The notes under the pieces: generated by a model | What the model saw: the letters and a program-made list of their open reading frames with translations, nothing else | Database searches by the model: none | What the model was told of the DNA's origin: nothing | Translations under genes and position numbers: made by a program | Shown here: in pieces, positions 2,760 through 61,756 of the stretch | Layout of the letters: each line of letters starts with the position of its first letter | How positions within the stretch are numbered: the stretch's first letter is position 1 | DNA from: Octopus vulgaris | Taxonomy: Eukaryota | Direction of reading: 5' to 3' | DNA: 64,000 bases | Assembly: GCA_951406725.2 (NCBI GenBank) | Contig: OX597825.1 | Location: 41,974,001 to 42,038,000 of the forward strand

Positions 2760-5180
2760 TCTATAAGCTAGAAATGTTATCAATTGCAAAGCATTGGATG
2801 TGTGGATAATTAAAATATCCATCAAGTTGAACAGAAATGACAAAAATAACATTATTCAAGTTAATGCACCAACTGGTATCAGTGATGATGAAGAGATGGA
2901 GGTATTTTACTGGCAGCTTGACAGTGCCATCCAAGAAAAGCGAACCATACTTTATTGATAGGCGATTTTGATGCAAAGGTGGACATTAGGAATAATAAAA
3001 GTGAAAATGTTACTGGAAATTATGTATCTGGGTTAACAAGTGGAAGTGCAAAAATACTATTTCAATTCACATGTTACAAAAAAGAAATGAGAACAGTATC
3101 TTTTTTATTAAAAGAAGTGCCAGAAAAGGGACAGAATGAGAAAATATTTGATTTCCTACTTTCAAGTGGCCAAAATATAGTTCGGTACATGATGGCTACC
3201 AATGAAGTGAACACTGGAAGTGACCAAAGACTTGTCAAATGCAAAATAAAAATAAACACAACTAAAGAAAGGAACAAAAAACTAAGGAAGTCACAAAGAA
3301 CTTGCATGGAAAACCTCATATCAAAAGTCTCGGAGTTCCAGTTAGCCTTGAAAAATAGATTTGATACACTTTGGAACAAGACAGACAATAGCAAAACCAA
3401 GGAGACAATGAATATTATAACTGAGACAATAAAAACATAGCCAAGGAAACTATATCGAACAGAAAAAAAGGCAAAAGACCAAACATTACCGAGAGGTATT
3501 ATCATTCTCATGAATATCTGAAAAACAATGAAACAAGACTCATTTGCACAAAACATTGACTATACTGAATTATGTAAAACAATAAGGAAAAAACTCAGAG
3601 AAAATAAAAGAAAAAGTAAGTCAAATATGGAGATGATTAAGGAAACAATTGGAAACAACTAAAGTCTTAAAAGAAACTAAGCAAAGGATGGGGCGCAACA
3701 CACTCATTAAGCTAAATGACAAAGATGGAAAACAATTCACAGAGAAAAGAATGCTAGAAAGAATAAGAGAATTCTGTGTTGACTTATATCAATCAAACAA
3801 AGAAGTTTCCCAGACATTTTGGAGGCAAAAGTTAGAAATGTTATAAAAGAAATGAAAAACAATAAAACTGCATGTCTAGATGGAACTGAAATAAACATAA
3901 TAAAAGTGGTTGAACCAAGTACAGAGAAAGAAATAGTTAAACTATATACAAAACGCCTACGTATACATAAGATACTGGATAAGGGAAAAAGTTCTGAACT
4001 GATCCTTCTTTATACAAAAAAAAAAGGGATGCCACAAAGTTCTTAAGAACTACAGACCAATCAGGCTGCTATCACACACCTACAAGATCTTCTCAAATCA
4101 GCAATATTTGAGAGAAAGCTGGATGAGAACACTACAGCAGGACAAGCAGGCTTCAGGAAAATCTACTGTACAATTGATCACATAACTGCTATATACCAAC
4201 TGAGGGAAAAACAGCAAACTTACAGCATACCATTATGCTTAACATTTGTAGATTTTGAAGAAGCTTTTGATTCCATGGAAACTGATGATACATTAAGAGC
4301 GCTGGAGGAGATGGAAAGTGAAGGAGACTACATGAAATTATCAGAGAATGTGTACACCAACTGCAGAAGTACAGCAACTATCATCAGTAAAGTGATTCAT
4401 GTCAAGATTGGTAAGGGAGTCAGACAAGAAGACATCATATCACTCAAATTATGCAAATCTGTATTTGTAAAGGTTTTTAAAAAAATTGTATTGATTAGAT
4501 AAAGGATGCATGCTAAATCATCACAGATTTGTTGACCATATTGTACTCATTTCCAGAAGCATTAAAGATCCAACAGAAAACTAAAAGAAGAAAGCAAGAT
4601 ATGTGGATTCAGAAATGAAGTAATAGATGATAAAATAGTTGAACATGTAAACCAATACAGCTATCTTGAACAAATTATATGCTTAAAGGATCAGACCAAA
4701 GAAATTAAATGACAAATACAATTAGGATAGGCATCCTTTGGTACATTGAATTACATCATGAGCAGTAAATTGCCCATGTGTCTAAAAAGAATGGTTTTCA
4801 AAAAATGTGTGCTGCCTACCATTATGTATGCATCAGAAACATGGACTACCTACAGGAGTATTGAAAATAAATTAAGATCAACCCAAAGGACTATGAAAAG
4901 GAGACTGTTGAAGATTAACAAAATGGGTAAGTGGAGAAATACAGGAAAAGTGGAGCAGCAGTTTAACAGATATTACCTGGAAAATAAAAACTCTGAAATG
5001 ATCTTTTGCAGGATATGTGCTTAGAAGAAAGGACAATAGATAGAATACCAAATTGATAGAGTTTGCACCACACCCAGAAAAAAGGAGGAGAAGAAGACCA
5101 TGCAGAAGTTGAAATGAAGACTTTTTAAAATTCTTCAGCATCCAAATATGAATAAGAAAAATATCAGACGTTGGTTTGTA
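2760..5180 (+). mobile_element. Decayed RTE-clade LINE (APE endonuclease plus reverse transcriptase)
   Basis: Motifs in order: IIQVNAPT, IGDFDAKV, SDQRLV (APE); YRPIRLLS, QAGFR, FVDFEEAFDS, GVRQEDIIS, VLPTIMYASETW (RT and C-terminus). Frameshifted throughout. Confidence 0.9.
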
Positions 5181-7200: not shown

Positions 7201-7455
7201 GAGGGATGTGTCCACACTATCACATATGAAGCTTCATCAAGAAAACTTTTAAACCACACATTTCTAAGATAGTGCTATTCTTCATTCTCAGTCTTGCATA
7301 TTTTCCTAAGGCATCTCATATAACAGTTATTCAACTGGTCGATGTGCCTACAATAAGGCGTCCAAGTCTCTGCTCCATATGAAAGAGTTGTTAGGACAAC
7401 TGACTTATATACTTTGATTTTAGTCCTTACTGAGTCAATCATAATGCTTTCCAAA
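7201..7455 (-). repeat. Local duplicate of the RTE-BovB fragment at 10905-11168
   Basis: Near-identical ~255 bp (YKSVVLTTLSYGAETW region) sharing the same inactivating lesions. Confidence 0.9.
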
Positions 7456-10420: not shown

Positions 10421-10433
10421 ACACTCACATTAC

Positions 10434-10476
10434 TTGTGAGTGGATATGGTAGATGGAAACTGAAAGAAGCCCATCG

Positions 10477-10526
<50 letters not shown>

Positions 10527-10740
10527 TGTGTGTGTGTATGTTTGTGTGTCTGTGTTTGTCCCCCCAACATTGCTTGACAACTGATGCTGGTGTGTTTACA
10601 TCCCCATAACTTAGCGGTTTGGCAAAAGAGACTGATAGAATAAGTACTAGGCTTACAAAGAATAAGATCTGAAGTTGATTTGCTCGACTAAAGGCCGTGC
10701 TCCAGTATGGCCACAGTCAAATGACTGAAACAAGTAAAGA
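10434..10740 (+). mobile_element. 5'-truncated tRNA-derived SINE with internal (TA)(TG) microsatellite (octopus-type family A)
   Basis: Same body and 3' end (GCTCCAG...GGCCACAGTCAAATGACTGAAACAAGTAAA) as many other copies in the window. Confidence 0.85.
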
Positions 10741-10759
10741 GGGAGAGTACCCTTTGAGT

Positions 10760-12130
10760 TTAGACATTTTGAAGCTGGGAAAAGCACTCTCTTTTCCAGT
10801 GGGCAATTTCTCCTTAAACCATAGAAGTGGCTGGCCTACATTGCATCGTGAATTTGCCAGCTGACCATAAATGGTTTGTTTTCGTATTCAACCACTATTC
10901 CAGTGAGGGATGTGTCCACACTATCACATATGAAGCTTCATCAAGAAAACCTTTAAACCAAATGGTCCACACATTTCTAAGATAGTACTATTCTTCATTC
11001 TCAGCTTTGCATATTTTCCTAAGGCATCTCATATAACAGTTATTCAACTGGTCGATGTGCCTACAATAAGGCGTCCAAGTCTCTGCTCCATAAGAAAGAG
11101 TTGTTAGGACAACTGACTTATATACTTTGATTTTAGTCCTTACTGAGTCAATCATAATGCTTTCCAAAAGCTGTACTAGCCTTTCTAATATGAGTTTGGA
11201 CCTCCCTATCCAGTTAAGCATCACTTGTTACTGTAGCACCCAAATATGTGAAAGTATCAATAGTTAGTTTTCAGATCTTTGCTTTCAACAAACATGCTGG
11301 GCAAGATTTTTAGAGTGTTACCAGGATGTAACTAATACAACAGCTCAGCCTTTTTTTATGCTGACAGTTAAGCCAAAAGATCTGGCTGTTGCTACAAATC
11401 TCTCAAGAATATGCTGGATGTCCTTGAGTGAATGAGCAACTAGGGCACAATCAACTGCAAACAGAAAGTCTCTCAATGTCTGAGATGCAAATTTAGTCCT
11501 TGCTTTGAAATGCTTTTGGTTGAAGATGACTCCTATTGTCCTATATTTAAAAATAAACTTCCTCTTCTACACCGGAAAAGGCATAATCCCATATTACTAT
11601 AAAAAATAGTGCTATTTTTAGTATACTGGAGACTATACACAACCATGTTTTCTACCATTTTTAGCATCAAAAGGCAAGACCGACTGCCATTTGAGACAAC
11701 AGATGCCTTCATATTTATATGTAGGGACACAATGACAATTAGCATTTGCCTGGGAATCCCAAGCTTTGCAAGTACTTTCCACAAAGTCTACAGATATACA
11801 GAGCTTTGTAAGGTCAACAAACACCATATAGAGGTCTTTATTGTGCTCTCAGGCTTTCTGAATCTGTTGCAAACAAATATCATATCCACTGTCCCTTGAT
11901 CTGACTAAAACTCACACTGACTCACTGGATAGACAGAACCAAATAAGTATGTGTTAATTCAAGGCAAGATGACTCTGGGAAGGATTTTTCTTGCAACAGA
12001 GAGCAGCAGTATGCCAAGAGGATTCTTATATTTACACTTATTACCTTTATACTTATATAGATGTATAATTATTGCATCATTAAATTGTTGAGGCCACATT
12101 TGGATCATAAGCTCTGTTAATTTATCTCTC
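10760..12130 (-). mobile_element. Decayed RTE-BovB-like LINE (RT region)
   Basis: MVFVDLTK, WKVLAKLGIP, GRKHGCV, RDFLFAVDCAL, FTYLG, YKSVVLTTLSYGAETW. Confidence 0.85.
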
Positions 12131-12729: not shown

Positions 12730-14265
12730 AGAGAAGAAATGGAACAACATGTAACAATTAGAAGCTGATAGTTATATGGAATGATCATAGTTTAATTATG
12801 GTTAAGATAACATAACATTTACTGCTGTTTCAGTTTGTTATTTTTGATGTAAACTTGCGTTTATCTCGTTCCATGTAACATCATCAAAATTATTTGAAGT
12901 TTACCAGAGGAATATTGACAGGAGATCGAAGGGTGGCAGGAGAAAAAAGGAAAAAAGAAAAAGAAAAGAAAAAGGCAAAAAGGAGAAAGGAAAAGGTTCG
13001 TCATGTCTTTAGGCTTACGTTTTTGCATCCTTAAAAGATGGTGTGTGTGTGTACAGTTGCTTCAAGTAGATGAATGGAGCAGTGAGGGAGTAAAAGAACC
13101 AGTTGACCGGTGGTGTTAGTCAAAAGAGTTATACCTAGTAGTAATACCAAGTATCATTAATCATAACATTATAACACTGTTTGAGTCCATTAGATAGGTC
13201 CTTATGATTACAAATAATGCCTTAATTAAAAATAAAGGGCACTCTTAAAAATTTAAGTGTGATATACGGTATAAATCTGGGTTACGTAAATAGGTGTAAT
13301 AAATAAATAGTGTTGTTATGTGTGGCCAGTGTTCACTATTCATTAATAAAATTAAAACAAATCAACTCAGCTAGAATAGGTTAATTCTTTGGTTATTTGT
13401 ATTTACGTTAATAGCAGTACTAGCAATTAGTATGTTAGTCAGTGATCTAACTTTAATGTGAATATATTAAAGAGAATTGTAGCTCTGGGTGTACATAGTA
13501 CATCTAAGATAAATAATTCAGTTAGTCAAAGTAAATTAAATATAATTGTGGTCTATGCTATTGTGTTGTGCTATGAGTTAAGGGTAAGGGTCAAAGGGAG
13601 GTAATCAGAGGTTAGACAAGTTAGCTAATAAACAGTAATGTAAGGTAGCAGTATTTAGAGAATAAGAATTTATCTTCATTAAATATGTTGTGTTTTTCAC
13701 GTCTTGTTTATTAAGCAATTCTGATTTGGCCATTAAAATGAAGAATTTCTCATTTATGCATAAATTGCAGCATTTATTTTTAAGGTTGTATGAAGATATT
13801 TTAGCTATTATTATTTTTTTATCATTACTACTATTATTATCGTTATCATGGTTAATATGATTATTAATATTAATATGAATCTTATTGTTCTTCCAGCTAT
13901 TTTTATTATTACTACTACTATTGTTATTGTTATTCTTATTATATTTATGATAATTATTATAGATATCGTAGCTATTATTAGTATTATTATAATTATAGAC
14001 ATTTTTGTTATTTGGACTATTTATATTAGGCTCCAAGTATAGGTACTTAATTTTTTGCTTATAGCCTGCCTTTCCCAATGCAATGTTATAATGTTTCTTA
14101 TACTAACTGAACACATCTTCATTAGACGAGAGATACAAAATTCTTTTACTAATGTCCTGGACAAGTCCTCTTTTTATAAAATTTGGGTGGTTGCTATGTG
14201 CATTTACAATAACCTCTAACTCATAATTTTCTTTATATATATGAAAGGTATTGGTATCCAGATGA
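12730..14265 (-). mobile_element. PLE 3' portion (RT thumb, Asn-rich linker, deleted endonuclease, long 3' region with HHR)
   Basis: HSNHPNFIK...RILYLSSNEDVF...YNIALGKAGY, then CCNLCINEKFFIL...LLNK. An HHR motif lies ~700 bp downstream and the element ends near a (TA)n tract. Confidence 0.8.
12815..12893 (-). ncRNA. Type I hammerhead-like motif at PLE 3' end (U3 core variant)
   Basis: att-TTGATGA-tgtta...aaacGCAAgttt...taaca-aact-GAAACAGCAGTA-aat. Confidence 0.55.
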
Positions 14266-16539: not shown

Positions 16540-16590
<51 letters not shown>

Positions 16591-16778
16591 ATATGCTTGT
16601 GAGTCAGTGTTTGTCCCGCCAACATTGCTTGACAACCAATGCTGGTGTGTTTACGTCCCCGTAGCTTAGCGGTTTGGCAAAAGAGACCGATAGAATAAGT
16701 CCTGGGATTGATTTGCTTGACTAAAGGTGGTACTACAACTTGGCCACAGTAAAATAACTGAAACAAGTAAAAAGAGTA

Positions 16779-17196
16779 GGCTGTTATACTTTACGTTGTT
16801 GAGTGGTTACTGTTTACATCTCGCTCTGAGATTTAATAATGCTTACAGTCAGTTTTTCGAAATCAGTGGCAGACGTCACTAGAAAAACTCATATATTTGC
16901 AAAGCAAGCCTTGCCTTCCATCGTGACCTTGTGGTTACCGCCCGTTGATAAGAGACAATAATCTCGAAACCGCGGTCCGGTGCGTATCACTAAGGCTTAC
17001 GAGGAAGGGATGACTTCCCTTTGCAAATACCTAAAGGGCACCGAAAGTGTGTCTAAACCAGCTGGAGATGTCGATCTCCTGGGGCTAAAAGCTACAGTAA
17101 CACCCCCACTTTGTGGTTAGCCATATTGAGATGGCTGTTATACTTTACGCTGTTGAGCAGTTACTGTTTACATCTCGCTCTGAGATTTAATAATGC
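16779..17196 (+). mobile_element. Retrozyme-like element: 354-bp unit with 64-bp terminal redundancy and one HHR
   Basis: 16779-16842 is repeated at 17133-17196. Central HHR, extensive self-complementarity, CpGs retained, followed by (TA)n. Confidence 0.85.
16938..16985 (+). ncRNA. Minimal type I hammerhead ribozyme, U3-A8 core variant
   Basis: ccg-TTGATAA-gaga caataa tctc-GAAA-CCGCGG-TC-cgg. Palindromic stem III (ACCGCGGT) and GUC cleavage site. Confidence 0.8.
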
Positions 17197-17708: not shown

Positions 17709-18322
17709 TGTGTACGTGTGTGTGTAGATAGATAGATTGATAGATAAAGAGACTGATAGAGAGAGAGTGACAGACAGAAACAGACAGACAGACGGACAGA
17801 TATACAGACAGAGACATAATACTATTATCTTAATGTTTACCTTTTGTCCATAATCAATGATATTCTGTTGAAAAGATCAAATGTTTAAGTAACATTTATT
17901 TTGTTATCTTGTAACTTTTGTTTCTAAAATCTTTTATTCAGTCATATCAACACCAGTTATTACTTCAGTTTAGTACTTAATTTATCAAGTCTTATTTCTC
18001 AATTCTCTATGTTACAATACACAAACGAAATCAACATAAACACAACTCTGGTTTTACTCAATTTGAGCACACGCTACCTTTATACCTACCTACACCCTGG
18101 TACACCCTGGGAGCAGATAATAGCAGCTTAATTTCAAACAACTTGCAACCATCTTTAAAAAACAATGATACTGTGAATAATGTAATATACAAAAAGACAG
18201 GATAGTCATGACTGGATTCATTTTGATCATAGATCTGCTTCATATATACTGACAAGAGATTAAACAACAAGAGCAACAATGAGGTGAAAGAAATTGCACT
18301 GTCTTATTACTGCTATATTTAT

Positions 18323-18706
18323 CTTTTATCTGTTTTTAAGTCATTAGTCTGCGGCCATGCTAGGGCACCACCTTGAAGAAATTCGAGTCGAATGAATTGA
18401 CCTTAGTACCTAAATATTTTTAAGCCCGGTACTTATTCTATTGGTCTCCTTTTGCTGAAACATCGAGTTACAGAGATGTAAACCAACCAATTTGGTTATC
18501 AAGTGGTGGAGTGGGACAAACACAGACACACACACACACATATATGTAGAACAGGCTTCTTTTAGTTTCCACTTACCAAATCCACTCACAAGGCTTTGGT
18601 TGGTCAGAAGCTATAATAAAAAACATCTGCCCAAGGTGCCATGCAGTGGGACTGAACCTGGAACCATGTGGTTGGGAAGCAAACTTCTTACCACACATCC
18701 ATACCT
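18323..18706 (-). mobile_element. tRNA-SINE family A
   Basis: Reverse complement of the family; B-box GGTTCAGTCCC. Confidence 0.8.
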
Positions 18707-20173
18707 TCACCATTGACTTTAATCCATTATTTTACTTTTTCCTATTGATTTTTGAATATTGGCCATGCTAGTGCAATACAATTTCTGTTTTCTAGTTTGA
18801 GTAATTAAGTGACAAATTTATCTCCAACATTAATATCTATGAAATACACAAGTGTATTATGATAAGAATGGGTCATTGAAAATGAGGCTTGAGATAAGAG
18901 AGGTTTCCAGACAGACATTGCTCTGATCAGCTCAGCTCTCGTGAGAAATTACTGGCAAAATTTATCTGAAATCACCTGTAAGAGAGATTGTAACTCTTTG
19001 GATTATACAGTTCTTACCTCAGATTTTTCATTGTCTATTTCAATGCTTTCAGGTATTGGACTGTGGCCATGCCATGTTTTTGCTTTCGTGTTTATTGTCA
19101 ATTAAATCAAGCTTAGTAGTTGTCTTGTTTATGGCGCTCAGAAAAATGAAAGGTTAAGTCTACTTAAGCAGAATTTGAACTCTGAACATAAAGGGATAAA
19201 ACAACACACCTTGAGTTATTCTGTTCAATGTGTTATGTGCTAAGAATTCTTCCTTTCTTAATTTTGTTTATATTTTACAAAATATATTTTAAAATTATTT
19301 ATTCATGTTTCTATACTTATTAAATATTTTAATTTTCAAATTAACATATATACAATCTGAAGTCAAAAAAGGTCAAATAATTTCCAATTTCTCATAAATA
19401 TATTTAGAAATTACAGTATTACATAGAATAAACTTGAAACAATATTAAATTACTGTTATTCTATAAATGAAATTCTTTAAATTTCTGAGAAGGAAATCAA
19501 TTTCTTCTCTTACCACGACCTGTAAAGTTGTTCATGCAGATTTGTTGCATTTCTAAATTTGTTACAAATCATTTGGGTTATAACAGCTGGAGACTACATG
19601 CAGTTTTAACAACAAAGTGTCTATGCAGAAAAAAATTACTCTCTATTAAAGTTTTGAGCCAACTACATATTGTAATTGGAATTTACAAAAAAACAAACAA
19701 AACAAATGATGAAGACAGGTGTGTAAACAACAAAAGATGTATTAGTTTAACACTCAGGAAGTGACAGTCTTTTATATTTTAAGCCTATGCTCTTCAACAG
19801 AAAGGGACACAGAAATAAATGGGGAGAGTAAATAAAAAAAGGTTTAGTGGCTAGTGATAATCATGGTGAATATTATAATACTGTTCCCTGTTTCTGACAG
19901 GTGATTGGCTAGTGGTAATCTAGTAGACCAGTATTGATGGTTGAGCCATCAGTGGCTAAAGCAGCAATGCCATTCCAGAAGGGTTCATCCAACAAATCGA
20001 CCTCAATGCTTGTTTCAAGTCTGATACGTATTCTATTAGTCTCATTTGCTGAACCATTAAGTAACAGGAACATAAACAAACCAGCACTGGTTGGCAAGTA
20101 AGGGACATACACACACACATATATATATATATGCGTATATGTGTATATTATCATCATATTATATTATCATATA

Positions 20174-20570
20174 GGTGCAGGAGTGGTTGTGTGGTAAGTA
20201 GCTTGCTTTCCAACCATATGATACCAGGCTCATTTCCACTGGCAAGTGTCTTCCACTATATCCTTGGGCTAACCAAAGCCTTGTGAGTGGATTTGGTAGA
20301 CAGAAACTGAAAGAAGCCTGAGGTATATATGTACACACAAATATACACACACACACATATATATATATGTGTATGTATGTATGTGTGTGTGTATCCCCAA
20401 CATCACTTGGCGTGTTTACGTCCCCATAACTTAGCAGTTTGGCAAAAGAAACTAATAGAATAAGTACTAGGCTCCCAAAGAATAAGTCCTGGGGTCAATT
20501 TTATCAACTAAAGGCGGTGCTCCAGCATGGCCACAGTCAAATGACTGAAAAAATAAAAGTGAAAAGAGAT
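20174..20570 (+). mobile_element. tRNA-SINE family A (partial inverted copies nearby at ~19930-20110 and ~20800-20957)
   Basis: GGTGCAGGAGTGGTTGTGTGGTAAG head, internal microsatellite, family tail. Confidence 0.85.
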
Positions 20571-23440: not shown

Positions 23441-23499
23441 AGATTCTGAAGGCACAGTACGTGTGTGTATGCACGTATGAATGTATGTATGCATGTATA

Positions 23500-23554
<55 letters not shown>

Positions 23555-23556
<2 letters not shown>

Positions 23557-24076
23557 CACTAATACTAATAATAATACTAATAATAGCTCTAGTAGTGAAA
23601 ATGAAAACGAATTGTCCATAAATAATACTAGTACCATGAATTATCCCCCCAGTTGTAATTGTAGGATTAGATCGAAATGTCCAGTATCTGGCTGCTGTTT
23701 GGTCCAAAATGTAGTTTATAAATGTACAATAGTGACTTCAAATAATAGCTATCTTTAATTTGGTTGTTCGGTGGATCTAAAAAAACGTTTAAACAATCAT
23801 TTTTCCTCCTTTAGGCTTAAACACAAGGCAGGTTGCACAACATTGTGCAGTAAAATTTGGGAACTGAAAAGAAATAATATAGAATTTAACCTAAAATGGG
23901 ATATAATAAGGAAAGCACAGCCTTATAAAAATAGTAGAGATGGTTGTGAACTTTGTTCTATGGAAACATTTGAAATTTTAAAACATAGGAATAATACAAA
24001 TTTGTTAAATAACCGTTCTGAACTAGGAGTATCTTGCATATATCACACAACCCGTATGTTTAAATATTTTAAATAA
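23555..24076 (+). pseudogene. PLE GIY-YIG endonuclease domain with one in-frame TAA
   Basis: ORFs 23465-23758 and 23771-24076 share a frame. TAA at 23756-23758 occupies the Tyr position of the YIG-like motif (YFG). Confidence 0.9.
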
Positions 24077-25506: not shown

Positions 25507-27282
25507 TACCGAAGATATTCTTGTTGCTTATTTTGATTATAATCACCCCATGGATTTATATGGATAACACCATACAAAATTCTGGTGCATCTAGCTTAAG
25601 TACCGTATTCATTTGAATCTAAATTTTGCTGAACTTATATATATACGCCTTCTTTTCACCTCTATCCATCTCCCCACCACCACTACCACCATTATCTTTT
25701 CAACTTCAGTATTCACTGTTGAAATTAAATCTGGGTAGAACTTTAGTTCATTAGTTTTTCCCTGATATCATTTAACTTTCTCACTCTGCCCATACACTAT
25801 GTCTGTCTGTCTGTTTCTCTCTCTCTCTTTCTCTCTCTTACAACCTACTGACCCACATGTAATCTCTCTCTCCCTCTTCATCTTTCTCTGATCTTTCTCC
25901 TGTCTGCTGTATTATTATTATTGATATTCTGCTGCTCTGCATCCATTTCTGTGTCATCTACTCATCACTCCATCTCTCAACTCATATGCATCACTGATCA
26001 TCTCCATTTTCTATCCACCATCTGCTCCATCCATTCCTCAAACCTGTCCTCTAATCACCAACTCTTTTCTATCTTCTTTCCTATGTTTCCTCTCATTCCC
26101 TACCTTTAACTTTGTCATACTTCTCATTCACTTTGAAACCTCTATTCTCCTGTCTCATTTCGCTTCTACTCACTCAAACTTTGAGGGTTCAACTCAACAC
26201 CTCATCATGACTATTTTTCCTCTCTTTCCAGCTTCACCCTAGTAAATCACACCCACTCTTTTATAACTAGAAAACTGTTCTATTCTCGTCCCTCTCTTTC
26301 ATACTTTAATCCCTCATCTCCTAGCATAAAGCTGCTTTCCTTTCTACTGTAGCTACACTCAGTTGTAGGAAATCTTAGTCTTATTGGATGCATAGCAGAC
26401 TCTCTTGTCCTGATGCTATGAAAAGGCATCCAGGATACTCTGTAAAATGCTTGAGTGGTTGACATTAGGAAAGATATGCAGTTATAGAAACTATATCAAA
26501 GCAGATATTGCAACATGATGCAGCCCTCAGACTTGCTGGATCCTCTCAAACCATCCAGTCCACACTAACATGGAACAAGGATAATGATTACAATGATGAT
26601 GACAATGATACACATTTTATGAGTGTGTATGTGGTATACGTATATGTATATACATAAATACATATGCATCTACACACACACATGCACGCACTCACATACT
26701 CTCTTTCTTGCAAGGATGAATAGTGGTTTATACCATTTTCAAATCCCAATACATCCGCCATATCCTTTTTGATAGCAGCAATTGATTGTGTGTAAAACTT
26801 CAATGACTCATTCCTTTGCATTTAACAATTACCAGAGCATTTATTATTATCAAACAATGTTCCTTTTTTTATCACAAATAATAGTACAGTGCAAAAGGGT
26901 TCATTCTTACAATGAATTAATTACTCCAAATACAATTGTAGGAGCCACAATTTCTGATTCTCAGTCAATTTATGCGTAACCCATTTTCAAATATCTTCAC
27001 TTGTTTACTTGTGTGTAAATGGCAGAGAACAGTCATAAAAGATACTACCAAGTCCATTGCAAATTGTAGAATTGATGTTCATGAGTTTCTTTCCAACAGT
27101 TTTTTAATTGGTTTTCATTTATGATGGACTTTGGTTTTCCTCATGAATCACTTTGGATTTTCCAAAGTGTAAATTATAAAACCATCAACGCACTGTTTGT
27201 AAGTTAACATAACTCTCCACAAATACCAAATTGGCATTTTTACTAGATTCAGTTACATTTAGTCCTTATTTAGCAAATGAAT

Positions 27283-40800: not shown

Positions 40801-41747
40801 ACCACAGAAGTAGCCATTAGATTTATCTAAGTAATAAGAAAAATAATGGGAAATTAAATCCTGTGAGTTGAATAAAGAAAGAAATAGTCAAAGGTGACGG
40901 TTTAATTATGTGAGTAATATTGAGATAAAAGATAGCTTAGAAGTGTAAATGAAAGAAAAAAGACATATTAAAAGCTGTTTCAAAGTTAAATAAAGTGTAA
41001 ATGAAATAAAACAAAATATAAGAACCAGTATAGATGATGTAGGTAAATATGATGACAAGATATGAAGAAATTTACATAAATAACTACACAAATACAAAAA
41101 GACAATAAAGAATAAAACATACTATTTAAGTGCATTGGTAGATAAAATTCAAATGACCCAAGGGAATAATTAGAATCTGTCCAGAAACAAATCTCTTATT
41201 AGGACTGTAAAATAAAAAGATAATTAAATTAAATTTTGCTAGCAATACTAAAGATAATGTTTGAAGTGTGTTATTTTAAGGCAGAGAAATTTATTTTTAG
41301 TAAAACTAAAGATATATTACATTTTAAATAGTTATAAGTTCTAGATTATATCGATAAAAGTGGGTGGAAAGATAAATCTTATAAAAATGATCTAAAGGAA
41401 TTGAATTTATAATGAAATGAAATGAAATGAAATATATTGCACTAAAATGAGTGACTAACTCATGAAAGTATGACAAAAATAATACTAATAAAACTAAAGT
41501 GAAGATCAAATAGTGTATATGTTTAACTGGCAAAAACTGACCATTTATAACAATGTATGACAATGTGAATTACTAGGAAAAATATAATGCACAGGTAGAT
41601 GTCCTGAACTTTATAAGGAAGACTTTGGTAAGTAAGAATATAAGGTATAAATTAGTATGAGTGATAGACTTTCCACTCAAAATATGTACTTAATGCTCTA
41701 AACTAAGGAGGTGTAGGAGTAAATGTAATGATTATGTTACACTTGTC

Positions 41748-42159
41748 TTTTACTCTTTTACTTTTTTCAGTCATTTGACTGCAGCCATGCTGGAGCACCA
41801 CCTTTAGTCAAGCAAACCAACCCCAGGACTTATTCTTTGTAAGCCTAGTATTTATTCTATTGTTCTCTTTTGCCAAACTGCTAAGTTACAGGGATGTAAC
41901 TTAGTTACAGGGATGTAACACACCAGCATTGGTTGTCAAGCGATGTTGGGGGAGGGGACAAACACACACACACACATATATATATACATATATATATGAC
42001 GGGCTTCTTTCAGTTTCCATCTACTAAATCCACTCACAAGGCTTTGGTCGGCCCGAGGCTATAGTAGAAGACACTTGCCCAAAGTGCTACACAGTGGGAC
42101 TGAACCCAGAATCATGTGGCTGGTAAGCAAGCTACTTACCACAGAGCCACTCCTGCACC
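41748..42159 (-). mobile_element. Full-length tRNA-SINE family A
   Basis: Complete from head to tail in reverse orientation. Confidence 0.9.
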
Positions 42160-45100
42160 TAAGTTAATAAAACTTAAAATATATATAGAACTGAACTTGA
42201 TACCACCCAGGTCTAGAAATGCAGAATAAGATAGGATGGGATCATATTAAAAATAATAAATTCAATTAGTGAGGCAAATTTTATTTCATTGAAAATGTTT
42301 TTAAAAGTGCTGTGATTACAGAACTGTGACATAAGCACATTTTCAGTAATTAACTGAATATCTTACACACATTTATTTTGATATCAGTGCCTGTATGTTA
42401 TGTTATTTTCAGTATGATATGTTGTTTAAAACAATTTCATTTATTGAGTTTATAAGTATTGTTGTTTCAATCTGAAACTAATGCTTATAAATGTATATTT
42501 GATAACATATTCATTAAAATTCTAAGTGTCAAATAAATAAATAAATAAATAATTAAATAAATAAATAAATAATTAAATAAAGGCCAGAGTTATTAAGATG
42601 AAATGTTTGATGCTTCTTTATAAATAACACATCTATAAAATATTAGCTTGATCTCCATAAAGTCATTGTGTAGTATTGGTTGTACTGACATATACCAAAC
42701 CAGCCTTTGAAAAATGTTTTTATATGGTTGTCTGCCTGCAGGAAATAGCAGCCAACTTCTTTCAAATTCCACCTTAGCATCTTAAAAAAGGTCCTAGGTT
42801 GGTAATGGTTGCAACCATATTGATCACAGATAGATTCAGAGAGGTACTTGTCATCCATTATTGCTACTATTTTTAAAATTCCATTTCATTTTTCAAAAGC
42901 TTAATCTATTATAGTGCTTATATTGTGAGTTCCTGCCAATTTTTTTTAAATACTAATCATTGCAAGTTGCAGACAGGATCTGAAACTCAGTAATTTATTA
43001 CATTTTGTCTTGGCTTTTCCTTGTCAGAAAAATCAAGTCACCAAATTTACATGCGCTATGAAGTATATTGGTCTTCATCAATATGGTTTAAGATTTTGAT
43101 GACCAGTAATCTTATATAATGTAGCAGACTAGTATTTTCCTCTACTTTCAAAACAGTGACCAACAGCAACAGCTTGTGATCAGGCAAAAAAATTGTTCAA
43201 AATCTCATTTAAAAACAACAATAACATATGTATTCTACACTCTGGTTTAACAAAGCAAAATGGTATTATAAACAACAAACTATATTTGATATTTTCACAA
43301 AGAAAATAGTTAAATTGTAGTTTATTGCCAATTCCACTCAATCCAAAAAGAATAAATTACTTCAAATAATATTTTGTTCACATAAAATCAGAAATTAATC
43401 ATTCTTTTAAAGTAAAGGCAAAAAAATAATATAACATTTTGTGCATTAGAAAAACAATTAGATATTTTTTGAATAAACAGTGAAGATGAAAGAAATAATT
43501 AATTACTCAAATATGATAATGATGACTATCCTACATGGCCAAGGAGGATGACCACTGGCTTGTAGGATTACCATAGTCAGATACAATGCTCAACAGTATT
43601 CATATGTTGACTGTAATTACAACCAGTCTATAACTAATGGTAAAGCAACTTAAAATAATTGTCAATCTTATGTCTGAACATGAATACTAAAGCTGCTTCT
43701 CTAGACAAACAGAAGATATTGAACACAGTATTACTAACTAAAGAAATAATTGTCAGTTTTACCATACTGCAGCTGCTTATAATAGAACACTTGCTCTTAC
43801 CCTACTGTCACTGTTTATAATTTAAAGAACTAGACCAGTATGAGGGTTAAATGTCTTGACCATGGTCTCAAAATGATGCCAATGGCAGTTATATAAACCA
43901 TCAATCTTTCTGTTGGTTCATCTGGTACCACATCTATTCAGTATCTCCACTCTTATGGAATGAATCAGTAGATTATAATGTTGATTGACTGAGTTTTACC
44001 AAGCCCCATAGAATCTGTAGCATTAGTAAATATTGGATTTGTATCCCAATGGCTATTTAATTATAGTTTGTTAATAGGATTCTTAAATGCAATATCATGT
44101 TCATTTAATTTCTTCTAAATAACTTCCATCTGCCATATTCTTTTTTTCATATATGTTTGTAATTATTTATTTTTGTGATTTTTAGTAGCAAATATGCCAT
44201 CTTAATTACAACTGATTCTACTATGTTTAACAGCATTAGGCAATAAGAGTTGATATGTCATTTTAACAGATTAGGATGCAATTGATTCCAAACGCTCAGA
44301 TTCACATTACTGGTTGCCAACTGTTGCAAGACATTAATAAATGGATGTAAAAATGGATTTAACATTCATTTTATCAATTAATGTACTATCATATGAGCGG
44401 GCAATATGGCTAACTTGTGCTTGATGCAGTCCCTGAGATGGTAAACAGATGAAAATAAAATCTTCTTTAGCATAAAATGCAAGTATCTCTTTATCTTCAT
44501 CATTTTACTTGTTTCAGTCATCAGACTGTGGCTATGTTGTGGCACTGACATGAAGAGTTTAGTTGAACAATTCAAAAACTGGACTTATTCTATTAGTCTC
44601 TTGTCAAAAAGTAGCAAGGAAGACACAGAAACACAGGGACACACACATACAGACATAATACATACTTTCACAAATGCATATATGATGGGCTTCCATGCAG
44701 TTTCCATCTACCACATCCACTTACAAGGCATTGGCTAACATTTTCCCTAATTTCAAGGCTTGGTTTGAAAGTGTGCAAACAAACCCCACAAACTAGACTG
44801 TAACTGTAATTAAGTAGCCCAACCAAGTCACACTATTATACTGATTCTACTTGAAATTTATGCTAAGAGTAAACATGTCAGTAAAGTAAACAATTACTTC
44901 TTGTAATGATCCGATGGGAAGGTCATTTGGGGATTAAGACGACTAGTTGCACATGTTTCAAACTGATGAGAGTGACCATTCTATTTATGTCTGAGTGTGT
45001 GTACGCATGTGTGTGTGATAATATAATCTAGTGGTCCTGTTGTCTGGAAAGAGTGAGGAGCCAAAAGAGGAGAAAATAGTTAAAGCAGCAGAAAAGTAAT

Positions 45101-46902: not shown

Positions 46903-47375
46903 ACAATATAAGCATTCATTTTAGAAATATATTCTTTATTCTTATTGCTTAAGCGTTACTTCTTACTTACTGACATTAATTTTCATAACATTTTATCTCA
47001 TAACTGCTGTTTTACTAATTTTTTGTTCAATGCGACTAACGATTCTGAATTCCTCATGTATTTTCCTATCATTTAAGCCTAAGAAAAGTATACTTTTAAT
47101 TTTAAATTAAAAAGTTTATTTTAATTGAAGATGAATATCTGCTGCCTTACTGCCCACTTGCGGTCTGATATATTTTGATGTAACTTTTTTCTACTGAACC
47201 AAATCTCAAACTATTCATGCCAAAGTGTAGCTGAGCAGGTGTCCTCTTTAAAACTATTGACAGTTTGAAATTTAGATGAGAACTGAATTAGTAGTGAACC
47301 TTGGAAGCTGCTGCGATTGACGAAATGGTGGACTTAAGAATATATTCAATTACTACCGTGGTTGAACGATACTCT

Positions 47376-47646
47376 ATTCTTTTATTTCTTTCCGTCATTT
47401 GACTGCGGCCATGCAGGAGCGCCGCCTTTAGTCGAACAAACCCACCTCAGGACTTATTCTTTGTAATCCTAGTACTTATTCTATCGGCACACACACACAC
47501 ACACATATATATATACGACGTGTTTCTTTCAGTTTCCGTCTACCAAATCTACTCACAAGGCTTTAGTCGGCCCGAGGCTATAGTGTAAGACACTTGCCCA
47601 AGGTGCCACGCAGTGGGACTGAACCTGGGACCATGTGGTTGGTAGG
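47376..47646 (-). mobile_element. tRNA-SINE family A (CpGs retained)
   Basis: Family match with intact CpGs. Confidence 0.85.
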
Positions 47647-48746: not shown

Positions 48747-49083
48747 TACTTGTTTCAGTCATTTAACTGCGGTCATGCTGGAGTACCGCCTTTAGTCGAA
48801 CAAATCGATCCCAGGACTTATTCTTTGTAAGCCTAGTATTTATTCCATCGGACTCTTTTACACACCAACATCGGTTGTCAAACGATGGTGGGGGAGTACA
48901 AACATACACACGCACATATACGACGGACTTCTTTCAGTTTTTGCCTACTTAATCCACTCACAAGGCTTTGGTCGGCCTGAGGCTCTAGTAGAATACGCTT
49001 GCCCAAGGTGCCACACAGTGGGACTGAACCTGGAACTATGTGGTTGATAGGCAAGCTACTTACCACACAGCAACTCCTGCGCC
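48747..49083 (-). mobile_element. tRNA-SINE family A
   Basis: Family match, head GGCGCAGGAG. Confidence 0.85.
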
Positions 49084-49157
49084 TATATATATTATTCAAA
49101 ACATGTAACTCTCAATAAATGTGTTGAGTGCCCTTTCTTTTGTTTGTCCTCTCATAT

Positions 49158-49206
<49 letters not shown>

Positions 49207-49763
49207 CGTTTAAATATTTGTTGTGCAAGATTTTTTATGTGAAGTCGTGTGTTGAAACAGATATTGTTATATTTCGGAATGGTCATATTGCCAGTTTAGC
49301 CAATAAAAACACACGCACTATATATTTGGTGTTATTTTGCTTCAGTGATATTTATTTTTTACATTAATCTTAATCTTATTTCGGCCAAAGTTCTTTCGTC
49401 ACACTCCTGTAACCGCATCAGTGGTCCTTTGTTTTCTTCTCACTTACTTGTGTCTCTCCTTACTAACCGTCAGCCATTTTGTATTTCTATTGTATGTCTT
49501 CATTTGCGCATGCTTATATCTCTATGTGCGTCTATGTTTATTTAGTGTGTGTGTGAGGGGGATGCCTGTAATATTTGTATCTTCTGGTTATATACATTCT
49601 TGTAATTTGTATTTTGTTTTTGTTGCTTTTGTTCTAATTTTGTTCATGTGTTTACATCCACCCATTATTATCATTACATATGCTTGTATGTATGTATAAC
49701 AACAATATTAGTAATAATAATAATAAATCTAATTGAAAAAAAAAAAAATAAATAAAAATAAAA

Positions 49764-49794
<31 letters not shown>

Positions 49795-50291
49795 CATATA
49801 CATACATATACATATATATATATACATATATACATATATATACATACATACATATACATATACATACACATACACATATATATACATATACATACACATA
49901 TATATACACACATACACACACATATACACATATACATACACATATACATATATATAGTTATTCATTTCTATTTCTTTAATTATCTGTGTATTTATTATGT
50001 TTGCAGGATCCACTATCGTCATATGTTGTGGTGTGCGCTATTGCTCCATTCTAGTTTTCTATTCAGGCTAGGTTTATTTTCTATTATATGTGTAGCTTCT
50101 GTAATTTGTCTAATTGTTGCATCTGTTCTATGTGTGGACAATATCTTAATCTCTATGTTATTGATTGATCCCCCGTGTTCTTGTTCAGCGTGTTGGTACA
50201 GAATCGATGAGCTTTTACCTTCCTTGAGTTGTCTCCAATGTTCATTCACCCGCTCACCAATGCTTCTTGCTGTTTCCCCTACGTATGTTAC

Positions 50292-50576
50292 TGTAACAAG
50301 ACAGTAACATACGTAGGGGAAACAGCAAGAAGCATTGGTGAGCGGGTGAATGAACATTGGAGACAACTCAAGGAAGGTAAAAGCTCATCGATTCTGTACC
50401 AACACGCTGAACAAGAACACGGGGGATCAATCAATAACATAGAGATTAAGATATTGTCCACACATAGAACAGATGCAACAATTAGACAAATTACAGAAGC
50501 TACACATATAATAGAAAATAAACCTAGCCTGAATAGAAAACTAGAATGGAGCAATAGCGCACACCACAACATATGA
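50292..50576 (+). pseudogene. PLE GIY-YIG endonuclease C-terminal half (mirror copy at 50019-50294 on the minus strand)
   Basis: [22 protein letters not shown]...HAEQEH...RQITEATHI...PSLNRKLEW. The apparent N-terminus of the track ORF is just the antisense arm. Confidence 0.9.
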
Positions 50577-50790
50577 CAATAGTGGATCCTGCAAACATAA
50601 TAAATACACAGATAATTAAAGAAATAGAAATGAATAACTATATATATGTATATGTGTATGTATGTGTGTGTATGTGTGTATATATATGTGTATGTATATG
50701 TATATATATGTGTATGTGTATGTATATGTATATGTATGTATGTATATATATGTATATATGTATATATATATATGTATATGTATGTATATG

Positions 50791-50854
<64 letters not shown>

Positions 50855-51169
50855 CAATTAGATTTATTATTATTATTACTAATATTGTTGTTATACATAC
50901 ATACAAGCATATGTAATGATAATAATGGGTGGATGTAAACACATGAACAAAATTAGAACAAAAGCAACAACAACAAAAACAAAATACAAATTACAAGAAT
51001 GTATATAACCAGAAGATACAAATATTACAGGCATCCCCTCCCACACACACACTAAATAAACATAGACGCACATAGAGATATAAGCATGCGCAAATGAAGA
51101 CATACAATAGAAATACAAAATGGCTGACGGTTAGTAAGGAGAGACACAAGTAAGTGAGAAGAAAACAAA

Positions 51170-51214
51170 GGACCACTGATGCGGTCACAGGAGTGTGACG
51201 AAAGAACTTTGGCC
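51170..51214 (+). ncRNA. Hammerhead-like motif (A9 position is C); mirror copy at 49383-49427
   Basis: ggacca-CTGATGCG-gtcaca ggag tgtgac-GAAA-gaactt-tggcc. Confidence 0.55.
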
Positions 51215-51328
51215 GAAATAAGATTAAGATTAATGTAAAAAATAAATATCACTGAAGCAAAATAACACCAAATATATAGTGCGTGTGTTTTTATTGGCTA
51301 AACTGGCAATATGACCATTCCGAAATAT

Positions 51329-51375
<47 letters not shown>

Positions 51376-51377
<2 letters not shown>

Positions 51378-53045
51378 AACACTGATTAGAGAAAAACATC
51401 AGCCTCACCTAGATTCGATCGATCTTGCTTCGACAGAATTTGCGACGTGTAAATTTAAGTACTTGCCTGTGTCTACTTCTGATGCACAAATATTATGTGA
51501 CGTCTTGGCGGATACTTGTTCCAGAGACGCGTCGTCGAACTGTTTTCCACATTCTGCATAGTGTCTTGCATCCCAGAGCTTCAGCCACAGGGAAATTCAT
51601 TTCGGCTAGATTCTTCTGGCCGAATGTAAGACGAGATATCACTGCTTGGTCTTGCCTTTTCTGCTAGAAATCGAAGGTGCACAAGCACATCTGTGCATCT
51701 CTTGGTATCTTCAACACACTGGACGCTCGTCTGAACCACATTCATATCGATTATGTTGAACCTTGACCGGTTTGTCAAAGCTTTATGTATCTCCTTACGT
51801 GCTTCGACTGCTTTACACGTTCGCTTGAAGCCATTCCTTTATGTGATATTTCAGCAGAATCGGTAGTGCGAGCCCTGGTATCGGGTTTGACATCACACTA
51901 CGGCGTCCATACCACGATCACTACTGACCGTGGTAGGCAATTCGAATTCCAGCTCACCCATGACCTTTCAAAAATTCTAGGGGCACAGTGCATTTGGACT
52001 ACTAGTTACCACCCAGCTTCAAACGGTAGGGTGGAACGCTTCCACTGACAATTGAAAGCTGTGATGCATGCTTATCATGACCAACATCAATAGAGTGAGT
52101 ATCTACACATTATCCTTCTGGGCTGCAGTCAAGGAGGATCTTAGATACTCTCCAGCGCAGCTGCTTTACGAAGTACCGTTATCCTTGCTTGGTTAGATAC
52201 TGGTCCCGGTGGACTTATCCTCCTAAGATCCTGCTCTCTTTCTTCAATCTTTCATTGATGACTCCTCGGCAAGAGACTATTACATCTTCGGCCCCGAAGG
52301 ATATTGCTCCGTGGACAAACATATTTCTTTGCAATGACTTTATGCAAAGTCCCCTCACACCACCATACACAGGGCCTTACTGTGTCCTTTCCAACACAAA
52401 TAAACTTTTCACTATAGACATTAATGGGACAAAAGAAGCTGTCTCAATTGACAAGGTTAAACGGGCTTTTACAGACGCTCTTACACTACAATCACATACC
52501 CATTACACATACACTGCTCATCACAGAACACATGCCACACCTTCGCGTTCCCCATCTTCACACTTGCACACACCTTCCCCAGCTCCATTTATATACGTCA
52601 CTACAATACACAGTGGTCGTCGTGTACACTGGCCCACCAAGTTGTGCAAGACTATCTATATCTGAACTGGCTGATATAGAGCAAAGTGTGAACTTACCTC
52701 AGAGCATTAACTTACCCTTTGTGCATGTTTTCATTTTGCTTTACTGTGTTATTTTGTACCTTGCTGTATTACTTTGTTTCTTTTTCAGCATTTTTCCTTT
52801 TTTCCTTTTGTATTTATGTGTTACCTTCCAGAACGTTTTCTCCTTTTTGCTGATCTCCCTTTCAGTTTAAGCAGGGGCTCATGTAGGAGCACTATTTCCC
52901 TTTGGTAGAATTGTTATCCGTCTATGTGTGATTTGGTTAGTGTAGCCAACCACTTTGACTCACACATAGATACACATTGCTGCCTGTATTGAGACATGGA
53001 AAAGTTTTTCATAAGTTCCATTCAGGCCTTGGGAGAAGTAAGACA
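51376..53045 (+). mobile_element. Ty3/Gypsy LTR retrotransposon 3' part: integrase, PPT and probable short LTR
   Basis: HSVLHP...RFFWPNV...C (HHCC), HIHID, YLLTCFDCFTR, ITTDRGRQF, YHPASNGRVERFH, PPYTGPY. Purine run aagcagggg precedes TG at 52882; LTR end uncertain. Confidence 0.9.
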
Positions 53046-53777
53046 TATTATCTCTCTGTCTGAACTCAACACCACGTGAAAATATCTAATGGGGAGACAT
53101 TCTAGAATTTGATACTGGATTATGAGACTGTTCAAAAATTTATCACGTTCCATATTTTCATATTATGAAGTAACTGTAAGTGTTATCTTTTGAATATGCT
53201 GCATACACCTAATTTGGATTTGTGACCTTATAAGAAGGAGCCTGAACATTCCTTCTATTCACCTAGGACACTGTTATGTCCTGTCTTTGAATGCTATGCA
53301 CGGTATGCCGGCAAGCAAACTTCATTTTAATTCTGTCACCAATTCCTCTTCCAATAAATTGCTATTGTTCTGTTAAGCCTTCTGAACATTGTTCATTATT
53401 CACATCTAGATGGAATTATAATTATTGCATTGCAAGATATTCTATTACCACTGTTATAAAACTTCAGATATTTTAGTGCCTATTCACTAAAACTGCATAT
53501 AAAGTAAAGCACACAAATATAAAAATGTTTCACAATCAAGTACCAGTATTTAAATATACTTAAATTTCTACTAGTATTATAAATATATAAGTATTTAAAT
53601 ATAGATAAATAAATGGATTACAGAATGAATAACAATATGCAATAAATCAACACGTAATTACATCAATAATAACTTGTAATAAATTGGAAAAGTTAAAAAA
53701 TAAATACAATTTGTGAGTATTATATTTGCAGATACACTCATAAACATGAGTAAAGATTTAGATAGCATGAGTAACTT

Positions 53778-54110
53778 TTTATCTTTTATTTGTTTCAGTC
53801 ATTTGACTGTGGTCATGTTGGGGTAGCACCTTGAGGGGTTTTTTTTAGTCAAACAAATCAACACCAGGACTTATTGTTTTAGCCTATTTTTTACTTATTC
53901 TCTCTGTCTCATTTGTCAAACCACTAAGTTATAGGGATATAAACATACCAACACCTGTTGTCAAGCAATCATGGGAGACAAACACAGACACAAACACTCA
54001 CACACACACACACACAGAGACACACACGCAATAGGCTTCTTTCAGTCTCCATCTACCAAATCCACTCACAAGGCTTTGGTTAGCACAAAGCTATAGTAGA
54101 AGACACTTGG
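53778..54110 (-). mobile_element. tRNA-SINE family A, CpG-depleted
   Basis: Family match. Confidence 0.8.
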
Positions 54111-55083
54111 CCTTTGGTGTTTGCCAAAATATGCCATTACAATGTTTTTCTGGTCATCTGTCATTGTACATAATTAAATTGCTGTCCTATGATTTCAAAA
54201 GTCTGTGAAAATATTCCACTGATAAATCTTTAGAATAATGGGCAGAATAACTGGCCATTCATAATGCTGGTCTTGTAAACAAGACCAATTTCCAATAGAG
54301 ACTGGCTCCAGCAGTCATGCTTGAATTTCCAGAGTCCTGCTATAAATATTATTAGATACTTCCCTATTGACTCTGTCTCTAGATTTAATCAATAGTAGAT
54401 GTGTAAGACAAGTTACCTATATTAACATGCTGTTTCTATTTTATTTTCAATTCAGTAAACTGGGTAGTTAGAACATATGTAATTTTGGCCTAAAGACCCA
54501 ATGCAGATTTACAGACAAGATAGACTCCATTGAACACTAACTTGTCCAATACCATATCATTTCAAACATTAATGTTCTTATGAAATAATAAACTAAATAA
54601 ATATCTGAAAAATTGTCCACATAATTCCCATAGTCAATTCACTACAATGGTAATAGTTACTGCAAGTAAAATATAAAGGTAATCATAACATTAAACAAAA
54701 CATTAGAAACTAATTAATTTCTCTTTTCTCTATAAATTTACATAGATTTTTTTTCCTTGTAAGTTCTTTTCTTTTCACTCGTCGTATATTAGTTTTATTA
54801 AATTTTCATTAAGATTCAATTAAAGTCATAAGTGTTCAAATGTTAGGAATCAGAGAATGTTGTGTTCTCCACACACAATGCACACACACACACACGCACA
54901 CACACACACACTCATGCACGCACATAGAAAGACAGACAAATAGATAGATAATACATGCATATACACACATGCATACATATAAACATACATACATGCATAC
55001 ATATTTATATATATATATATACACACACATTATCATACATATGCATAGATATATGTCTATGTGTGTATACATATACAAATATA

Positions 55084-61517: not shown

Positions 61518-61756
61518 GTTCTGTCATTCAGTTTAAATTGCCAATAAGCCACTTTTATTATTGATATATTCTTTTATTCTTTTCTTTTACTTGTTTCAGT
61601 CATTTGACTGCAGCTATGCTGGAGCACCACCTTTAGTCATACAAATCGACCCCAGGACTTATTCTATCAGTCTCTTTTGCTGAACCACTAAGCTATCAAG
61701 CACACAAACATACATATATATATATATATGTGTGTGTGTGTGTATGTATATATATA

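Follow-up and report, generated by a model that had tools for sequence, protein, structure and literature searches.

A hammerhead core with U3-A8 in a likely 354-base retrozyme unit of Octopus vulgaris

A 64-kb stretch of Octopus vulgaris DNA (the window throughout) contains a hammerhead core with U3-A8. The 354-base unit around it is likely a retrozyme. Cleavage at GUC is predicted for the dimer only, and U3-A8 was likely inherited and not gained at this locus; to this reading as a whole we give a probability of about 0.7. The core variant itself is rare but already known, and the finding therefore adds little chemistry. The locus marks a probable retrozyme family overlooked by standard annotation, and in a small compass it lets one ask why some hammerheads work with U3-A8 when others do not.

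A complete type I hammerhead motif

Positions 16945–16951 of the window read TTGATAA (UUGAUAA in RNA), corresponding to hammerhead core positions 3–9. Judged from its sequence, this heptamer belongs to a complete type I hammerhead motif, of which it forms the core (Table 1). A sequence-only reading of the window had proposed that UUGAUAA replaces CUGAUGA through changes at positions 3 and 8. Alignment to the Rfam HH9 consensus, in which the core is CUGAUGA, bore this out, with departures at these two positions only. The same reading had held that positions 3 and 8 form a tertiary Watson–Crick pair, which is established for C3-G8 (PMC3884650), and that the exchange of C-G for U-A keeps Watson–Crick pairing between them, as it does. 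On these sequence grounds, and from one copy, U3-A8 is plausible as a compensatory pair that may reflect selection for function, as the reading had suggested.

The core surrounds a three-way junction with a Watson–Crick 3-8 pair (U3-A8, a published variant), and stems I, II and III are all present, with stem I open. Stem I consists of the pairs G16944-C16978, C16943-G16979, C16942-G16980, C16941-G16982, G16940-C16983 and C16939-G16984, and the bulged U16981 within it could be a sign of decay. The stem III base pairs A15.1-U16.1 and C15.2-G16.2 are intact. The cleavage triplet, GUC at 16975–16977, has the NUH form of type I hammerheads. The putative docking elements, UUAC in loop 1 and CAAUAA in loop 2, match the HH9 consensus loops in sequence.

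Table 1. Positions of the hammerhead motif, the unit that carries it and the adjoining repeat in the window
Feature	Position	Strand	Remarks
Retrozyme-like insertion of about 1.18 units (a full 354-bp unit and a further 64 bp)	16779..17196	+	
Terminal direct repeat, left copy	16779..16842	+	Differs from the right copy at 3 of 64 positions
Terminal direct repeat, right copy	17133..17196	+	Followed by (AT)n/(AC)n microsatellite
Long imperfect hairpin arm (136 bases), ribozyme at its tip	16894..17029	+	MFE fold
Flanking SINE-like dispersed repeat, outside the element	16582..16774	+	Self-BLAST; alignment of 8 copies
Complete type I hammerhead motif	16931..16990	+	Rfam HH9 match 16927–17000 and the pairs listed in the text
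Internal loop 1 UUAC, putative docking element of HH9 type	16935..16938	+	Faces UA at 16985–16986; HH9 consensus alignment
Stem I, 5' strand	16939..16944	+	Pairs with 16978–16984; 6 bp, U16981 bulged
Hammerhead core UUGAUAA	16945..16951	+	U3 = 16945, A8 = 16950
Stem II GAGA/UCUC (4 bp) with loop 2 CAAUAA (16956–16961)	16952..16965	+	
Core G12 A13 A14	16966..16968	+	Intact
Stem III palindrome ACCGCGGU, perfect	16969..16976	+	2 bp in the monomer; 8 bp in the two-copy duplex (cofold)
Predicted cleavage site GUC^C	16977..16978	+	HH9 alignment, core numbering

Detection by Rfam and by descriptors

The Rfam model RF02275 (Hammerhead_HH9, clan CL00010) was aligned to 16927–17000 over its full length (1–77 of 77) with 32.2 bits. 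The E-value was 3.7e-6 in a 701-base search and 3.4e-4 when the whole window was searched against 4227 families. This score lies below the HH9 gathering score of 52, which the motif would have to reach for membership of the family, and a standard scan is therefore silent on it: at gathering thresholds, the Rfam scan of the whole window returned 0 matches. The octopus motif resembles HH9 in its full-length match, its loops (UUAC and CAA-AA) and GAAAC...GUC, but differs in its shortened palindromic stem III, its U3-A8, the stem I bulge and the score of 32.2 bits.

The TTGATAA heptamer occurs 27 times in the window (8 copies on the forward and 19 on the reverse strand) and so is uninformative by itself; the context is what counts. 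A strict hammerhead descriptor gave one match in the window and none in 200 dinucleotide shuffles, and a relaxed descriptor gave two matches against a shuffle mean of 0.14. The strict descriptor was composed after the motif had been seen, so the Rfam E-value is the less biased figure. The second relaxed U3A8 match, at 26990 on the reverse strand, is without G10.1-C11.1 and was taken as chance. No further hammerheads were detected in the window with the canonical descriptor carrying C3G8, C3A8, U3G8, G3C8 or A3U8 cores. It had been expected from the sequence alone that CUGANGA motif searches would miss this core; CUGANGA descriptors and Rfam gathering cut-offs both fail to report the motif.

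Anatomy of the 354-bp unit

The locus holds 1.18 units and one ribozyme, with no tandem array, and apart from the terminal repeat there is no second copy of the unit in the window. The unit is 44.9 % GC, and no ORF of at least 90 aa is present inside 16779–17196. Folded as a circle, the unit reached −111.0 kcal/mol against −85.1±4.6 kcal/mol for 60 shuffles (z=−5.6). The other phasing gave a z of −5.0, with about 65–69 % of bases paired in both phasings, and the reverse strand likewise folded strongly (z=−4.0). Animal non-LTR retrozymes are described as self-paired, non-coding elements of 170–400 nt with less than 50 % GC (Cervera and de la Pena 2020, PMC7229834), and dispersed retrozyme monomers have also been described (10.64898/2026.07.22.740005). 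The octopus unit agrees in length, GC content, lack of coding sequence, type I hammerhead and self-paired circle, and we take it to be a likely case of an animal non-LTR retrozyme dispersed as a single unit.

Given this repeat anatomy, which is that of a mobile element, we think it highly improbable that this copy now serves its host as a domesticated regulatory ribozyme. Amniotes, with their conserved HH9 motifs in introns, would be the precedent for such a role, and HH9 is indeed the best Rfam match here. However, the score falls short of the gathering threshold, stem III is predicted to be too weak for the monomer and no host exon was found nearby.

The insertion begins a few bases past the 3' end of the SINE-like repeat at 16582–16774, and none of the seven other aligned SINE-like copies runs on into the 64-bp repeat. 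This position of the repeat, right past the SINE end, argues against a reading of the element as a 290-bp hammerhead-bearing SINE-like insert flanked by an unusually long target-site duplication. Sixty-four base pairs is long for a target duplication, and predicted folds show base pairing between the repeat and the inner region. The inner 287 bp does fold well alone (z=−4.8), and the target duplications of retrozymes may exceed 4 bp (PMC7229834), but we consider this reading very unlikely.

Instead of being a free retrozyme, the unit could be the pseudo-LTR (pLTR) of an autonomous Penelope-like element (PLE) whose insertion was truncated and has a long 'tail'. No RT or GIY-YIG/endonuclease ORF adjoins 16779–17196, as would be looked for in a pLTR. 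The window does contain PLE remnants, families with U3-A8 have been described in the pLTRs of PLEs (PMC4209133), and a preprint derives retrozymes from pLTRs (10.64898/2026.07.22.740005). PLE insertions bear terminal extensions and some prefer microsatellites, but the redundancy here is 64 bp against tails of 30–40 bp (10.1101/2021.04.23.441226). The ribozyme is canonical, with a 4-bp stem II, docking loops and no extra base after A9, unlike the minimal metazoan PLE motifs, and when folded as a circle the whole unit pairs strongly with itself. Comparison with the 3' regions of the PLEs in the window gave no convincing likeness (the best of six comparisons scored 33 against 26.3±3.8, with 5 of 100 shuffles as high). 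A pLTR origin of this copy is accordingly judged unlikely, and a free non-LTR retrozyme is the preferred reading of the unit.

Predicted folding of monomer and dimer

Secondary structures were predicted with folding models that include neither tertiary contacts nor Mg2+. In the monomer, linear or circular, the active fold had a modelled probability of about 6e-5; the ribozyme is predicted to be trapped by a helix between 16942–16945 and the 3' half of the palindrome. For two 66-mers the MFE structure was a double hammerhead (−43.1 versus 2×−18.2 kcal/mol). The MFE structure of a modelled whole-unit tandem was likewise a double hammerhead, with a strict ensemble share of just 0.027. Self-cleavage of the motif is thus predicted by the models for the dimer only, and dependence on the dimer is established for palindromic motifs with a short helix III (PMC4209133; PMC7229834, axolotl; PMC6765202). 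The solo genomic copy is probably inactive by itself, since its palindromic stem III is of the dimer type and the locus holds a single ribozyme, and it is probably a dead-end insertion unless it pairs in trans.

The same models were evaluated with four cores. In the 66-mer pair, the probability of a double hammerhead with both cores open was 0.272 for U3A8, 0.002 for C3G8, 0.118 for C3A8 and 0.003 for U3G8. In the whole-unit tandem it was 0.027 for U3A8 versus 0.000, 0.000 and 0.002, respectively. In these models G8 lets stem II GAGA/UCUC shift two bases out of register and A8 does not: the slip pair 8:11.1 had a probability of 0.83 with C3G8 (0.83–0.87 across the G8 cores) and 0.00 with U3A8. 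C3 stabilised the inhibitory monomer helix (MFE −20.4 versus −18.2). As a control, stem II was varied, and the native sequence ranked fifth of 64 variants for preferring U3A8 over C3G8; the median variant also prefers U3A8, about 4-fold. The models suggest that the surrounding sequence suits A8, with U3-A8 avoiding both the stem II slip that comes with G8 and the stronger monomer helix that comes with C3. In this setting U3-A8 is predicted to perform better than C3-G8 because G8 lets stem II slip.

Origin of the U3-A8 pair

Two indirect lines of evidence favour U3-A8 as an inherited state of the family. One is the surrounding sequence, in which stem II is predicted to slip with G8 and to stay in register with A8. 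The other is a likelihood estimate for an inherited U3-A8, which was 0.98 at a decay of 0.023 per site and a prior of 0.01 but varied with the assumptions, from 0.08 to 0.99 over 12 settings. U3-A8 is also a family state elsewhere, in two of 56 published family representatives (PMC4209133, Fig. S3). The decay value was estimated from the terminal repeats, with their three mismatches in 64. CpG decay was considered as the source of both changes and rejected, as neither site lies in a CpG context.

In the opposing account the family is an ordinary C3-G8 retrozyme family, C3U and G8A were gained independently after insertion and the apparent compensation is a coincidence. In its favour, C3U and G8A are transitions, mismatches are already present at 3 of 64 positions of the terminal repeats and stem I carries a bulge. 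However, exactly two transitions at positions 3 and 8, while 13 further core sites stay unchanged, have a probability of about 1.5e-4 to 1e-3 (about 1.5e-4 at a decay of 0.023 per site), and neither position is a CpG site. In addition, C3-G8 is predicted to slip with the present stem II (0.83), so that an ancestor combining this stem II with C3-G8 would have been a poor ribozyme. We therefore regard independent mutation as quite improbable and inheritance of U3-A8 as the better account.

Relatives were sought outside the window. A GTDB scan with a U3 and A/G8 pattern gave 55 matches, of which three had a 4-bp stem II and none was a full type I hammerhead; GTDB thus provides no relatives and no covariation test. 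A blastn search of phages and plasmids gave no match.

A further possibility, which we put forward tentatively and consider doubtful, is that the unit belongs to an undescribed animal retrozyme family that has become locked into a tertiary-stabilised U3-A8, its stem II having drifted after the swap to GAGA/UCUC, which would misfold with G8, so that return to the consensus is blocked. If true, entrenched U3-A8 families would escape CUGANGA descriptors and Rfam cut-offs, and would provide a natural system in which to test how a ribozyme core becomes evolutionarily entrenched. More generally, if the probable retrozyme family and the predicted advantage of U3-A8 over C3-G8 at this locus were confirmed, retrozyme counts based on CUGANGA only would be too low, and peripheral sequence would be able to fix a non-consensus core.

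Other elements in the window

The window is AT-rich (29–41 % GC per 2 kb), with many microsatellites and dispersed repeats and with LINE and integrase remnants, and is read as non-coding animal DNA. Pfam searches of 23 of the 60 long ORFs of the window found LINE and integrase remnants and one weak low-complexity match, and no host gene. A tRNA scan of the window found 0 genes. A broken LINE-type element at 2922–5024 (+) retains endonuclease (PF14529, E 0.006) and RT (PF00078, E 8e-5) fragments, and an integrase core remnant at 51767–52665 (+; PF00665, E 5e-8) is probably from an LTR retrotransposon.

A SINE-like family with an internal microsatellite is represented by diverged copies, about 67–90 % alike and with no tRNA gene detected, at 10433–10741, 16582–16774, 18318–18711, 20172–20567, 41747–42161, 47375–47646, 48747–49095, 53775–54112 and 61573–61728. 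A pair of 260-bp direct repeats (7201–7455 and 10905–11168) is 94.7 % identical.

A near-perfect inverted repeat of 2.08 kb at 49261–51336, centred near 50295 and with arms 96.4 % identical, looks like an inverted, 5'-truncated PLE insertion. Each arm carries the C-terminal part of a Penelope-like ORF with its endonuclease end (50211–50573), which has no Pfam match and is 54 % identical to P0001 (547 aa, with RT and GIY-YIG-like motifs by eye). Each arm also contains one minimal hammerhead-like motif, at 51176 (+) and 49421 (−), in which the core is CUGAUGC, with C as nucleotide 9; an additional G, GAAA and a stem II of 6 bp are also present. One copy has C where the other has U, a difference that preserves a stem II pair, and co-folding them gave no double hammerhead. 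This motif may be degenerate or another core variant. Broken ORF remnants at 23450–24076 (+), adjoining an (AT)n microsatellite, and at 13605–14102 (−) have no matching Pfam family; by eye, we take them to resemble Penelope-like GIY-YIG endonuclease ends. No hammerhead was found near either of them.

Proposed mechanism

By analogy with known elements, tandem source arrays elsewhere in the genome would be transcribed, and double hammerheads would cut the RNA into 354-nt monomers. A single unit, linear or circular, would keep its ribozyme trapped, and two units would pair their palindromes, swap stem I strands and open both cores, as the folding models predict. The monomers, again by analogy, would be circularised by a host ligase and then reverse transcribed in trans. 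The helper is probably the enzyme of a Penelope-like element; remnants of such elements are present in the 64-kb window, and one Penelope-like enzyme begins reverse transcription inside its template (PMC11167929).

The cleavage site is about 200 bases away from each end of the insertion, which suggests that the template was not a cleaved linear monomer. The permuted 1.18-unit insertion would result if a circle were copied a little beyond one full turn, or if the template were a multimer. Within the core, U3-A8 would maintain pairing between nucleotides 3 and 8 and so the placement of the ribose of nucleotide 8, to which a general acid role is ascribed (PMC2920678), and in this sequence it would also sidestep the stem II slip and the strengthened inhibitory helix.

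Comparison with known hammerheads and retrozymes

Natural covariation to U3-A8 was reported in 2011 (PMC3088659, section 8 and Fig. S6), and about 1,300 matches to a U3-A8 descriptor were reported from S. mansoni in 2014 (PMC4209133). Among the 56 family representatives in Fig. S3 of the latter paper, 53 are C3-G8, two are U3-A8 and one is the uncompensated U3-G8; one of the U3-A8 representatives carries the identical heptamer UUGAUAA. The tolerance of the core varies with the individual ribozyme (PMC2920678). When a type III hammerhead was scanned with mutations in pairs, rescue was seen with G3-C8 alone and the other double mutants of the motif had low activity (PMC9901934), so that rescue by U3-A8 appears to depend on context. 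No paper on a hammerhead or retrozyme family in octopus was found in the literature, and no canonical U3-A8 hammerhead with docking loops was found in an animal retrozyme, in a search that had most subscription papers outside its reach.

The octopus motif shares U3-A8 with the first natural examples (Perreault et al. 2011, PMC3088659), where such pairs are stated to have been active in vitro earlier. The core variants in Fig. S6 of that paper name bacteria, phages and a marine metagenome, unlike the octopus motif, and the U3-A8 carriers among them are not distinguished in the available text.

The hammerheads of the S. mansoni Cercyon PLEs (PMC4209133) are similar in their U3-A8 covariation, in the UUGAUAA of one family representative and in a dimer-dependent type I architecture. 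However, the Cercyon motifs are minimal and pLTR-linked, with one more base following A9, a helix III loop that is small or absent and a poorly defined loop 1, whereas the octopus motif is canonical, with docking loops and no adjoining ORF. The minimal PLE form, with its long helix II, inserted base after A9 and poorly defined loop 1, does not describe the octopus motif; canonical hammerhead motifs do occur in plant PLEs (PMC4209133).

The closest known elements are the axolotl HHR_Amex1 and the mussel units of 350–390 bp (PMC7229834). The octopus element differs from these retrozymes in its U3-A8 core, which does not appear in the available part of their description, and in being known here from one locus of 1.18 units and from its sequence alone. 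It has in common with them a type I hammerhead, a GC content below 50 %, the lack of coding sequence, a self-paired circle, conserved loop 1–loop 2 elements and a weak helix III with a palindromic tetraloop.
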